The notes: generated from the letters alone by a model not told the origin. A stretch of 64,000 nt of DNA from Escherichia coli O157:H7 (GCF_013167455.1 NZ_CP038328.1), one strand, 5' to 3'. Positions 28,945-60,336 are shown, numbered from the stretch's first letter. Made by a program: numbers and translations.

Positions 28945-29076
28945 ACCAAACGACTCGGGGTGCCCTTCTGCGTGAAGGCTGAGAAATACCCGTATCACCT
29001 GATCTGGATAATGCCAGCGTAGGGAAGTCACGGACCACCAGGTCATTGCTTCTTCACGTTATGGCAGGAGCAAACT
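28945..29076 (+). promoter_or_regulatory. TPP riboswitch (THI element) in the thiM leader
   Basis: Sequence ggggtgcccttctgcgtgaaggctgagaaatacccgtatcacctgatctggataatgccagcgtagggaagtc matches the thiM TPP aptamer; expression platform runs to the thiM SD/ATG. Confidence 0.85.
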
Positions 29077-36884: not shown

Positions 36885-37000
36885 GTAGGACGGATAAGGC
36901 GTTTACGCCGCATCCGGCAACCTATGCCTGATGCGACGCTGAAGCGTCTTATCATGCCTACGCAGCGCTGCCACATATGTTTACGCCGCATCCTGCATAA
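36885..37000. repeat. REP/BIME cluster downstream of fbaB
   Basis: Imperfect palindromes of the gccggatgcggcgtaaacgccttatcc type (ggataaggcgtttacgccgcatccggca; gcctgatgcgacgctgaagcgtcttatcatgcctac). Confidence 0.6.
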
Positions 37001-45274: not shown

Positions 45275-45362
45275 TAAAAAATAAGCCCGTGTAAGGGAGA
45301 TTACACAGGCTAAGGAGGTGGTTCCTGGTACAGCTAGCATTTTATGGGTTATGTTTTTCAGC
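45275..45362 (-). ncRNA. cyaR: CyaR (RyeE) Hfq-dependent sRNA
   Basis: Minus strand reads GCUGAAAAACAUAACCCAUAAAAUGCUAGCUGUACCAGGAACCACCUCCUUAGCCUGUGUAAUCUCCCUUACACGGGCUUAUUUUUU, matching CyaR as I recall it, including the terminator hairpin and U-run. Confidence 0.75.
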
Positions 45363-45446
45363 GAAACGGATGATAACCTTAATAAATGCAGCTGTATGTG
45401 ATCGGTTTCTAAGAATTTTCCATCCGGGAAAAATAATCGAAATTAA

Positions 45447-57000: not shown

Positions 57001-57214
57001 CGGCAGAGGTCATGACATCCGGGCTCGCACCTGGGTAGAGCGTGACCACCTGAATGGTCGGATAGTCCACTTCCGGCAGCGCCGAAACGGGCAGGGCGCG
57101 ATAACCGATAATCCCGGCGAGTAAGATCGCCACCATCAGCAGCGTGGTGGCCACAGGACGCATAATAAACAGGCGCGACGGGCCGCCTGTGCTGCTCGGG
57201 GGTAACACTTGCAT
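54092..57214 (-). CDS. mdtB: RND multidrug efflux pump subunit MdtB
   Basis: 1040-aa RND permease; start overlaps mdtA stop. Confidence 0.95.
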
Positions 57215-58461
57215 CAGGAGCGAGCTCCTTTTTTCGCGTATTCGCGGCTGGTGGCTTTCTCTTCCGGAGTGGTGGCGCTCTGGGCTTCCACCACTTCCAC
57301 TTTCGCCCCTTCGGTCAGGCGATCAATGCCGTCTGTCACCACGCGATCGCCCGCAGAAATACCTGCGCGGATCACCACTTTCTGACTGTCCTGAATGCCC
57401 GGCGTCACCAGATGTTTGCTGACCTTGTTTTCGCTATTCAGCACCCAGACAAAATGGCCTTCATTGCCCATTTGCAGGGCGGCTGTTGGGATCACTACGG
57501 CGTTTTGTTCGGTGTCGACTAACATGCGCGCGTTAACAAACTGATTGGGAAACAGCGCATCATCCTGATTATTAAAGCGTGCTTTCACTTTAATCGTACC
57601 GGTAGTGGCATCGATTTGGTTATCGAGACTTAACAGCGTGCCTTCACTTAATTTCTTCGAGTTGGTGCGATCCCAGGCTTCTACCACCAGCGGTTTTCCG
57701 GCTTTTTGCGCCTGCACGACGGTAGCGATATCGCTTTCCGGCAGGGTAAAGAGCAAATCGATAGGATGCGTCTGGGTGATCACCACGATCCCGGTGGTAT
57801 CACCACTGGAGATTTGGTTACCAACATCAACCTGCTTGAGACCAACGCGACCATCGACTGGTGCGGTAATACGGCTCCAGTCGAGTTGCAGCTGCGCGCT
57901 GGCGACGCTTGCTTCATCAGCCTTAATGGTGCCTTCGGTTTCACTGACCAGCGCCTGTTGGGCATCCAGCTCCTGGCGGGAGACGAGATTGGTTTTTGCC
58001 AGTTGCTGATAACGCGCCAGATCACGGCGGGCGTTGGTAAGCGTGGCTTTATCTTTTGCCAGTTGGCCCTGGGCTTGTGCTAATGCAACTTTGAACTGGC
58101 TGGGGTCAATTTCTGCCAGTAAATCGCCAGCTTTGACCTGCTGGCCTTCCTGGAAATGTAACGCCATCAGTTGACCGTCCACGCGGCTACGCACCGTAAC
58201 AGTATTAGCAGCGGTAATGGTGCCAAGCCCGGTGAGGTAACGCGGAACTGCCTGTTCTACGGCGGTCGCCGCCTGAACCGGGGCTAATGGGCCGGAACGC
58301 ATACCACGGCGACCACCCGCTGGCGATTGCTGCGCTTGTTTCGTCGCCCCTGGGGCTGCACTCTGGGAGTCATTGCGGCCTTGCCAGAACCAGAATGCGG
58401 CGATGGCGGCGATAACTACCACGATTACGATTACCCAACGGGATTTATAACTGCCTTTCAT
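57214..58461 (-). CDS. mdtA: RND efflux membrane-fusion protein MdtA
   Basis: Start [26 protein letters not shown] (ATG 58461, SD aggaagag); 415 aa. Confidence 0.9.
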
Positions 58462-58506
58462 CGTTAAGAGTTTCTCTTCCTGAAACGTTTCGCGGAATGA
58501 TACTAG

Positions 58507-58524
58507 TGTAGCCAGCCAATAAGG
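58507..58524 (-). promoter_or_regulatory. BaeR-box-like sequence upstream of mdtA
   Basis: Plus strand gccaataagggagaaaaa is the complement of TTTTTCTCCCTTATTGGC, one mismatch from the BaeR consensus TTTTTCTCCATDATTGGC as I recall it. Confidence 0.45.
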
Positions 58525-58689
58525 GAGAAAAATGGAGGAATTATGAAACACTATCGGGAATCGTCTGAATGGCGGGCACATTTGCGAGCACGCATCCAGT
58601 AATAACACAGGAAACTATTTTATCTACGCGTTAGCGATAGACTGCTTGCATGGCGAAAGGAGGTAAGCCGACGATTTCAGCGGGACGCT

Positions 58690-58833
58690 GAAACGGGAAA
58701 GCCCCCTCCCGAGGAAGGGGCCATAAATAAGGAAAGGGTCATGATGAAGATACTCATCATCGTGGTGCTCTTAGTGATTAGCTACCCAGCATACTAAGAC
58801 TACCAGGGCGGGGGAAACCCCGCTCTACCCTCA
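58690..58833 (-). ncRNA. Sib-family antisense sRNA (antitoxin), copy 1
   Basis: Minus-strand promoter (-35 TTGACA = plus 58863-58868, 17-bp spacer, -10 TACTTT = plus 58840-58845); transcript spans the ibs ORF antisense and ends at a hairpin near 58700-58722. Coordinates approximate. Confidence 0.5.
58740..58796 (+). CDS. Ibs-family type I toxin peptide, 18 aa (MMKILIIVVLLVISYPAY)
   Basis: ATGATGAAG start after aaagggtc SD-like stretch, TAA stop; IbsB-like sequence. Confidence 0.75.
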
Positions 58834-59018
58834 CTCCTGAAAGTATGCCTTCACGTTCAGAATGTCAATCCGCAGGCTTTGCAGTCTGCGATCCTGCCAG
58901 CAAATATTCTTTGCGAGACGTTACGCAATAATCACAGAGGAAACTATTTTATCCGCAAGTCAGCGATAGACTGAATTCAGGGCGAAAGGAGGTAAGCCGA
59001 CGATTTCAGCGGGACGCT

Positions 59019-59161
59019 GAAACGGGAAAGCCCCTCCCGAGGAAGGGGCCTTAAATAAGGAAAGGGTCATGATGAAGTGGATCATCATCGTGGTGCTCTT
59101 AGTCATAAGCTTCCCGGCTTACTAAGACTACCAGGGCGGGGGAAACCCCGCTCTACCCTCA
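59019..59161 (-). ncRNA. Sib-family antisense sRNA, copy 2
   Basis: Same promoter architecture (TTGACA = plus 59191-59196; -10 TACTTT = plus 59168-59173); antisense to the second ibs ORF. Coordinates approximate. Confidence 0.5.
59069..59125 (+). CDS. Ibs-family type I toxin peptide, 18 aa (MMKWIIIVVLLVISFPAY)
   Basis: Second repeat unit; ATGATGAAG...TAA. Confidence 0.75.
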   Translation: MMKWIIIVVLLVISFPAY

Positions 59162-59346
59162 CTCCTGAAAGTATGCCTTCACGATAAGATTGTCAATCTG
59201 CAGGCTTTGCAGTCTGCGATCCTGCCAGCAAATATTCTTTGCGAGACGTTACGCAATAATCACACTGGAAACTATTTTATCCGCAAGTCAGCGATAGACT
59301 GCATGCATGGCGAAAGGAGGTAAGCCGACGATTTCAGCGGGATGCT

Positions 59347-59495
59347 GAAACGGGAAAGCCCCTCCCGAGGAAGGGGCCTTAAATAAGAAAAGGGTTATGA
59401 TGAAGCACGTCATCATACTGGTGATACTCTTAGTGATTAGCTTCCAGGCTTACTAAGAACACCAGGGGGAGGGGGAAACCTTTCCCTAACCCTCA
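59347..59495 (-). ncRNA. Sib-family antisense sRNA, copy 3 (SibA-like)
   Basis: Promoter TTGACA (plus 59525-59530), 17-bp spacer, -10 TAATTT (plus 59502-59507); antisense to the third ibs ORF. Coordinates approximate. Confidence 0.5.
59397..59456 (+). CDS. ibsA: Ibs-family type I toxin peptide, 19 aa (MMKHVIILVILLVISFQAY), IbsA-like
   Basis: Third repeat unit, nearest yegL as ibsA is in K-12; ATGATGAAG...TAA. Confidence 0.7.
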   Translation: MMKHVIILVILLVISFQAY

Positions 59496-59676
59496 CTCCT
59501 GAAATTATGTCACTCCGCCCTTAGTGTCAATCGACGGCTCTCCGTTCTTGCGAGGCGAATAGCAAAATTTTCTGCGCCGCCGGGCCTAATTCTGAAAGTT
59601 TCTTCGTTTGCTCTTATTTCATTATTGCAATCGGTATGATACCGGACCTCAATAATTCTCTAAGAAAGGATTTCTT

Positions 59677-60336
59677 ATGAGCGAACAAATCACGTTTGCC
59701 ACCAGCGATTTTGCCAGTAACCCGGAACCACGTTGCCCCTGCATTTTGCTGCTGGATGTTTCTGGTTCGATGAACGGTAGACCCATTAATGAACTTAACG
59801 CCGGATTGGTTACCTTTCGCGATGAGCTGCTTGCCGACCCGCTGGCCTTAAAAAGAGTGGAACTTGGTATTGTGACGTTCGGCCCGGTGCATGTGGAACA
59901 ACCCTTTACCAGCGCCGCTAATTTTTTCCCGCCCATCCTGTTTGCCCAGGGGGATACACCAATGGGTGCCGCCATTACCAAAGCCCTGGATATGGTAGAG
60001 GAGCGGAAACGTGAGTATCGTGCAAATGGTATTTCGTATTATCGCCCGTGGATTTTCCTGATCACCGATGGTGCACCAACCGATGAGTGGCAGGCTGCCG
60101 CCAACAAAGTGTTTCAGGGGGAAGAAGATAAGAAGTTTGCCTTCTTTTCCATCGGTGTTCAGGGGGCGGATATTAAGACTCTGGCACAAATCAGCGTTCG
60201 TCAGCCTTTGCCACTGCAGGGATTACAATTCCGTGAACTGTTTAGCTGGTTATCCAGTTCGCTGCGTTCGGTTTCCCGCTCCACGCCGGGAACGGAAGTT
60301 GTGCTGGAAGCGCCAAAAGGCTGGACGTCAGTGTGA
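59677..60336 (+). CDS. yegL: von Willebrand factor A domain protein YegL
   Basis: 219-aa ORF with VWA MIDAS-like start (LLLDVSGSM) and SD aaagga. Confidence 0.8.

Follow-up and report, generated by a model that had tools for sequence, protein, structure and literature searches.

A three-module Ibs/Sib type I toxin-antitoxin array between mdtA and yegL of Escherichia coli O157:H7 as a probable state of a copy-number polymorphism

Introduction

How did the interval between mdtA and yegL in Escherichia coli O157:H7 come to hold three Ibs/Sib type I toxin-antitoxin modules, and are these distinct circuits or copies of one another? K-12 (MG1655) has only two modules at this site, sibA/ibsA adjoining yegL and sibB/ibsB adjoining mdtA, as the first-pass annotation of the O157:H7 sequence had stated. 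That annotation took three copies to be unusual and attributed the extra one to duplication followed by divergence. The comparisons described here lead to a different reading, to which we assign a probability of about 0.9: the mdtA-yegL locus of O157:H7 consists of three distinct type I modules and represents one state of a copy-number polymorphism that extends from one module to at least four.

The Ibs/Sib family, its mechanism, its tandem duplication and its higher number in O157:H7 have been described: there are seven ibs genes in the Sakai strain (PMC2887945), compared with five in K-12 (PMC2943612). The Sib RNAs of K-12 are ~140 nt long, are made constitutively and cover the whole ibs ORF together with its ribosome-binding site; overproduction of Ibs damages the cell envelope and kills; two independent recognition domains of the antisense RNA lead to a block of translation and to RNase III-linked decay; and the toxicity of overproduced Ibs, like its relief by the cognate Sib RNA, has been demonstrated for K-12 members of the family (PMC2943612, PMC4147584). 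The DNA analysed here, referred to below as the window, is a 64,000-nt stretch of an O157:H7 chromosome (GCF_013167455.1, NZ_CP038328.1). Its last 25 kb (39001-64000) are 100% identical to the corresponding DNA of O157:H7 strains EDL933 and Sakai and of many other O157:H7 genomes, and 298 database records match this segment at 99% identity or better. The anatomy of the locus, family membership, population frequency, cross-lineage orthology and mosaic patterns were computed directly; what is said of transcription, toxicity, repression and specificity is carried over from the K-12 experiments.

Anatomy of the array

Three head-to-tail units of ~328 bp each occupy the interval (58581-59570). Tandem Repeats Finder reports them as a single array (58600-59509, period 328, 2.8 copies, 90% matches, score 1449), and a repeat-family search of the region yields three-copy families at a spacing of 328-334 nt. 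The Tandem Repeats Finder result and the annotation of the flanks uphold the earlier description of a ~330-bp unit present three times between mdtA and yegL. On the left lies mdtA (57214-58461, minus strand), which encodes a multidrug efflux membrane fusion protein; its start codon is at 58461 and its 415-aa translation begins MKGSYKSRW. On the right lies yegL (59677-60336, plus strand), encoding a vWA-domain protein. (Both assignments are transferred from the PGAP annotation of the identical locus.) The repeat search, Tandem Repeats Finder and alignment to the K-12 units delimit unit 1 (module 1; 58581-58909, plus strand, ~329 bp) and unit 2 (module 2; 58910-59237, plus strand, 328 bp). Unit 3 (59238-59570, plus strand), which is delimited by the repeat search, by K-12 alignment and by the mosaic test described below, is a hybrid: it is of the ibsA/sibA type but with an IbsB-type 5' UTR.

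In every unit the plus strand carries an Ibs ORF of 18-19 aa, beginning in all three cases with ATGATGAAG, and each ORF is overlapped over its full length, on the minus strand, by a full-length match to the Rfam SIB_RNA family. The first ORF (58741-58797, plus strand; 18 aa, MMKILIIVVLLVISYPAY) is identical to RefSeq WP_012767742.1 and the second (59069-59125, plus strand; 18 aa, MMKWIIIVVLLVISFPAY) to WP_012767741.1; the third (59397-59456, plus strand; 19 aa, MMKHVIILVILLVISFQAY) is K-12 IbsA, WP_010723109.1. The peptides of ORF 1 and ORF 2 match the Pfam Ibs_toxin family (PF13956) over the entire model (positions 1-19 of 19), with E values of 9.4e-8 and 4.8e-10, respectively. These matches and those to Rfam RF00113 show that the original identification of three Ibs/Sib modules was right. 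NCBIfam HMMs run on padded Ibs peptides returned no Ibs match, only noise; PGAP nevertheless names all three toxins, calling ORF 1 an Ibs family toxin in genomes identical at this locus. The IbsB-like peptides of modules 1 and 2 are of different types, MMKIL..SYPAY and MMKWI..SFPAY, respectively. They differ at residues 4-5 (IL versus WI), which is the N-terminal difference already pointed out in the first-pass annotation. A further difference, Y versus F at residue 15, was not mentioned there.

The antisense RNAs and their promoters

The three matches to RF00113 span the whole model (positions 1-147) with scores of 144.9, 140.1 and 140.1 bits (E ~1e-30), the gathering score of the family being 56. 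The ends of the RNAs are placed by homology to the annotated K-12 genes: a 137-nt Sib RNA 1 (58696-58832, minus strand, 140.1 bits) by homology to sibB (b4437), a 136-nt Sib RNA 2 (59025-59160, minus strand, 140.1 bits), likewise by homology to SibB, and a 143-nt SibA-like RNA 3 (59352-59494, minus strand, 144.9 bits) by homology to SibA. With ends so placed, each Sib span includes the whole ORF and 40-45 nt upstream of it. All three RNAs are predicted to fold into one architecture, with helices P1, P5 and P6, a single-stranded J1/7 and a terminator hairpin.

The antisense promoters that had been proposed from the sequence, TTGACA separated by 17 nt from TACTTT or TAATTT, can be read in all three units. 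The predicted Sib1 promoter (58840-58868, minus strand) has its -35 TTGACA at 58868-58863 and, after a 17-nt spacer, its -10 TACTTT at 58845-58840, the hexamers of the K-12 sibB promoter. The Sib2 promoter (59168-59196, minus strand; TTGACA at 59196-59191, 17 nt, TACTTT at 59173-59168) is identical to that of K-12 sibB from the -35 element through the start site, and the Sib3 promoter (59502-59530, minus strand; TTGACA at 59530-59525, 17 nt, TAATTT at 59507-59502) is identical to that of K-12 sibA. Run over 58400-59700, a generic scan for promoters and terminators called no Sib promoter and no canonical T-rich terminator. The Sib -10 hexamers match TATAAT at only three of six positions, the Sib1 -10 element falls under the threshold of the scanner, and the terminator tail reads UUUCC(C)GUUU, which is not a U-run. 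The missed calls are not counted against function, K-12 having the same promoters. The promoter of the toxin gene is less distinct: alignment with the region upstream of ibsC brings out GAAACTATTTTAT...GCGATAGACTG, a block that is conserved at 90-125 nt before each ATG and is a candidate ibs promoter, but no convincing pair of -35 and -10 elements could be assigned in that alignment.

By analogy with K-12, each module would work as follows. The plus strand would encode an 18-19 aa hydrophobic membrane toxin, and the minus strand would give rise to a constitutive antisense RNA of ~140 nt that spans the ORF, the start codon and the Shine-Dalgarno sequence. Pairing of this Sib RNA with the ibs mRNA of its module would start at an exposed loop, TRD1, directed at the 3' half of the ORF, and also at the single-stranded TRD2, directed at the translation initiation region, with the P6 loop assisting. 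Pairing would then block translation and bring on RNase III-dependent decay, so that toxin would be made only upon loss of Sib.

What distinguishes the modules

The recognition elements just referred to were defined in SibC (PMC2943612). TRD1 is the loop of P5 and has its target within the ORF; TRD2 is the single-stranded J1/7 and its target is the initiation region, with the P6 loop required (PMC2943612). The 10 substitutions between Sib1 and Sib2 are confined to the equivalents of these elements: five are in TRD1, four in the P6 loop and one in TRD2. With an even spread of substitutions over the 136 nt, such clustering would have a probability of ~3e-5 (7e-4 if seven clusters are counted), a rough estimate, TRD1, the P6 loop and TRD2 being also the only unpaired segments. 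The stretches of P6 loop and TRD1 that tell the Sib RNAs apart are the antisense of AAGATACTC/GTGATTAGCTACCCAGC, AAGTGGATC/GTCATAAGCTTCCCGGC and AAGCACGTC. What Sib1 and Sib2 have in common is a 26-nt identical run that spans the segment complementary to the start codon and Shine-Dalgarno sequence and forms the TRD2 core; their single TRD2 difference lies at its edge. The shared core makes some cross-repression between modules 1 and 2 possible, a point that is taken up below.

The third RNA is of a mixed kind. SibA-like RNA 3 differs from K-12 sibA (b4436) at eight positions, all but one of them in the 3' third. The corresponding DNA (59352-59400), which specifies that third of the RNA together with the 5' UTR of ibsA, is of the IbsB/SibB type (GCCCCTCCCGAGGAAGGGGC) and not of the SibA type found in K-12 and ST131 (GCCTCTCCCGGAGAAGAGGGC). 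Its TRD2 edge and terminator being of SibB type, the SibA-like RNA of O157:H7 may differ in target range from K-12 SibA.

Module number in the population

Copy number was assessed in 5,426 complete E. coli genomes with a 121-nt probe for the junction between successive units. In the genomes that were checked, the number of junctions plus one equals the number of modules: K-12-type genomes have one junction and two modules, O157:H7 PV15-279 two junctions and three modules, and ST131 three junctions and four modules. Of the 5,426 genomes, 5,301 contain the junction, which occurs 8,921 times in all and at most six times in any one, so that some genomes seem to hold up to seven modules; five junction matches are on plasmid records. 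An evenly spaced sample of 60 genomes divides into 29 with one junction, 22 with two and nine with three; its mean of 1.67 is close to the overall figure of 1.68 (8,921/5,301). A second sample of 40, drawn from a search with the whole locus, comprises 15 collinear three-module arrays, 17 with two modules, two with one and four with four, the remainder being one three-module array with a disrupted mdtA side and one partial match.

Three modules are thus found in ~37-40% of sampled genomes, two in 43-48%, four in 10-15% and one in a few percent; these proportions are estimates from evenly spaced samples (n = 40 and 60) of ranked match lists, in a collection that is biased toward clinical lineages. 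That three modules are a common state of the locus is robust to this bias. The idea that three copies are out of the ordinary is contradicted by this comparison with K-12 and other E. coli, in which half of the sampled genomes have at least three modules. A literature search for population-level studies of ibs-sib copy number found nothing specific.

Age and exchange of modules

The order of modules in different lineages bears directly on their age. In ST131 and other B2 strains it is MMKIL..SYPAY, MMKWI..SFPAY, MMKLL..SWPAY, IbsA; in O157:H7 it is MMKIL..SYPAY, MMKWI..SFPAY, IbsA; in O55:H7 TB182A it is MMKIL..SYPAY, IbsA; FDAARGOS_1303 has MMKIL..SYPAY and MMKLL..SWPAY, and N137 has IbsA only. 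Modules 1 and 2 of the four-module ST131/B2 arrays are orthologous to those of O157:H7, being in the same order and encoding identical peptides, whereas the third IbsB-like module (MMKLL..SWPAY) is lacking in O157:H7. Orthologous units of O157:H7 and ST131 differ at 10-11 positions in 328 nt, whereas within one genome module 1 differs from module 2 at 35. For module 1, two of these orthologue differences lie inside the Sib transcript and eight outside; for module 2, none lies inside and 11 outside; neither ORF has any. Between modules 1 and 2 of O157:H7, on the other hand, 11 positions differ inside the Sib transcript and 24 outside, with nine in the ORF. Because orthologues differ so much less than the two modules do inside Sib, modules 1 and 2 are, on this comparison, old paralogues, already separate before distant E. 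coli phylogroups diverged. The same counts have the form expected if each Sib/ibs core is under purifying selection. The 76-nt core of module 2 is found exactly in 1,942 complete-genome records, including O145:H28 and O111:H8, and the module 1 core in 1,118, with 3,357 records at 95% identity or better.

Outgroups among the GTDB representatives extend the history of the site. Citrobacter species have a single IbsA-like module adjoining mdtA, with a 19-aa peptide (e.g., MMKHVIILVILLVISLPAY); E. albertii has a single IbsB-like module beside mdtA, with an 18-aa peptide (MMKLLIIVVLLVISLPAY); one other Escherichia lineage likewise has a single IbsB-like module, and another Escherichia species has two. 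In E. whittamii the exact MMKWI peptide is encoded beside mdtA. (The E. whittamii and E. coli E69 loci are cut at the array and give no copy number.) These loci come from a contig scan with the 16-mer ACCCTCACTCCTGAAA, which returned 113 stretches when ~139 chance matches were to be expected (298 Gb, both strands); only 16 Escherichia/Citrobacter loci are real, and most of the 113 stretches are there by chance. The site is older than the genus Escherichia, and the expansion of the array appears to have taken place within it.

How the number changes is suggested by a mosaic test, in which sites that distinguish two parental module types were scored in reduced arrays. K-12 ibsB is of module 1 type, apart from one private change, as far as codons 4-5 and of module 2 type from position +38 of the ORF through the Sib promoter. 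In the ibsA unit of O157:H7, sites upstream of -16 are of IbsB type and those from -1 onward are those of K-12 ibsA, as would be expected if a crossover close to the start codon of ibsA had removed one unit. A single switch, at a different place in each case, is also seen in the ibsA unit of O55:H7, in that of N137 and in the second unit of FDAARGOS_1303. Such single-switch chimeras point to unequal homologous crossover between units as the means by which module number would shift, and gene conversion could account for some of them. Candidate hot spots for crossover are a 23-nt stretch of identity within the ORF and the interval from the Shine-Dalgarno sequence to the ATG. The patterns suggest that the K-12 and O157:H7 arrays are both reductions of larger arrays, rather than the latter being an expansion of the former: K-12 is more likely the reduced state because its ibsB has the appearance of a recombinant between module types that larger arrays contain. 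Since a single stretch of DNA specifies the toxin on one strand and the antitoxin on the other, every chimera would remain a matched pair; the cis-antisense layout presumably keeps the products of crossover self-complementary.

Alternative readings

A recent, lineage-specific event would be another account of the O157:H7 array: a two-module locus like that of K-12 duplicated its ibsB/sibB unit, after which the two toxins became different at the N-terminus. The two modules of K-12 fit such a history, as do the two modules (module 1 and ibsA) of O55:H7 TB182A, a close relative, which indicate that copy number has changed near the O157:H7 lineage. It is hard to reconcile with the occurrence in ST131, a member of a distant phylogroup, of both peptides in unchanged order, each Sib core there having only 0-2 differences from its O157:H7 counterpart while modules 1 and 2 are separated by 11; with the wide distribution of the exact module 2 core, O145:H28 and O111:H8 included; and with the presence of the MMKWI peptide in E. 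whittamii. K-12 ibsB is itself a mosaic of module types, and at least three modules are present in about half of the sampled genomes. We consider recent duplication followed by divergence, which was the earlier explanation of the extra copy, to be extremely unlikely; it is not borne out by the order of modules shared with ST131. Decay is scarcely a better candidate. In this account one or two of the units make no toxin or no Sib and persist only because tandem repeats are lost slowly. Chromosomal type I loci can degenerate (PMC2887945), the freedom of copy number to vary down to one implies that no single module is indispensable, and the Sib -10 hexamers are weak by comparison with consensus. 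Against this, each of the three units retains an intact ORF, Shine-Dalgarno sequence, pair of -35 and -10 hexamers and predicted Sib structure; the promoters of Sib2 and Sib3 do not differ from their K-12 counterparts; and the distribution of changes between O157:H7 and ST131 (0-2 in each core and none in an ORF, with 8-11 in the flanking 190 nt) is the pattern of purifying selection. Non-functional units are very unlikely.

Modules 1 and 2 might be functionally redundant, each Sib RNA repressing the mRNA of the other module, so that the extra module adds dosage and not a separate circuit. Sib1 and Sib2 have the 26-nt run in common, engineered contiguous helices of 22-25 bp sufficed to repress a non-cognate ibs (PMC2943612), and repression of ibsA by non-cognate Sib RNAs has been described (PMC2943612). 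The five TRD1 and four P6-loop differences nevertheless set the two modules apart; in SibC the function of TRD2 required a matching P6 loop (PMC2943612), and the K-12 Sib RNAs, the ibsA case excepted, act on their cognate targets only (PMC2943612). On balance we think redundancy somewhat improbable, and return to three distinct modules at a locus of variable copy number as the preferred reading.

Related systems and prior annotation

The O157:H7 array shares with K-12 ibsA/sibA and ibsB/sibB its site, orientation, unit length of ~328 bp, promoter hexamers and RNA architecture, and the units of the two strains align in register. What sets it apart is the number of modules, two IbsB-like peptides of which neither is K-12 IbsB (MMKLLIIVVLLVISFPAY), and a SibA-type RNA with a TRD2 edge and terminator of SibB type, unlike those of K-12 SibA. 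The ibsC/sibC pair shares the fold, and its variable recognition elements occupy the same positions, onto which the differences between modules 1 and 2 map exactly; it is present in single copy at another locus, and SibC differs from the O157:H7 Sib RNAs throughout TRD1 and TRD2. The ldr/rdl genes of K-12 and the zorO-orzO/zorP-orzP genes of EHEC are also tandem arrays of small hydrophobic toxins with RNA antitoxins in one intergenic region, and their copy number also varies by strain (PMC2887945). They belong to families unrelated to Ibs/Sib, however, and in them the antitoxin pairs with the 5' UTR and not with the whole ORF (PMC8594479).

The zor-orz array is also in the window (3721-4740). 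Two matches to Rfam OrzO-P (RF02083), at 3721-3796 and 4332-4405 (both minus strand; 99.9 and 88.8 bits), each lie ~240 nt upstream of a 29-aa ORF, one at 4043-4132 (plus strand; MDSLTQKLTVLIAVLELLVALLRLIDLLK) and the other starting at 4652 (plus strand; MDTLTQKL...). This second tandem type I array is the zorO-orzO/zorP-orzP pair (Z3289/Z3290), which is absent from K-12 (PMC2887945). Other Rfam matches above the gathering score are to the CyaR/RyeE sRNA (45279-45364, minus strand), a TPP riboswitch (28946-29042, plus strand) and naRNA4, a REP-derived nucleoid-associated RNA (36888-36958, plus strand), which are expected chromosomal features.

The Ibs/Sib locus itself is already known: it belongs to a known family, all of whose sequence-level defining features it shows, at a known site, it is annotated in a reference pathogen, and its three-module state is found in more than one-third of sequenced strains. 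In EDL933, PGAP lists the three toxins under the accessions given above. Reference annotation does miss part of the locus. The Sakai RefSeq record (NC_002695.2, 2827800-2830200) has no gene annotated between yegL and mdtA, and the PGAP records contain three Ibs coding sequences and no Sib ncRNA feature, which makes the antitoxins invisible in standard annotation. What is mildly new is descriptive: the distribution of module number in the population, the recombinant make-up of both K-12 ibsB and the ibsA unit of O157:H7, and the exact coincidence of the differences between paralogues with published recognition elements.

Implications

With at least three modules in about half of sampled complete E. 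coli genomes, K-12 is unrepresentative at this locus. One may ask whether the array does more than vary in length. Crossovers in the ORF and initiation region would recombine TRD2, P6-loop and TRD1 elements, and the array could in that way be a natural generator of new toxin-antitoxin specificities. We offer this as a speculation, and an unlikely one. Were it true, strains would carry differing sets of partly insulated circuits. Modules 1 and 2 having a common TRD2 but distinct TRD1 and P6 loops, and the SibA-type RNA having a SibB-type 3' end, a hierarchy of cross-repression different from that of K-12 would be predicted for O157:H7. The natural modules (MMKIL, MMKWI, MMKLL..SWPAY, IbsA and their chimeras) are well suited to tests of the rules for TRD1, TRD2 and the P6 loop that have been derived from SibC and SibD.
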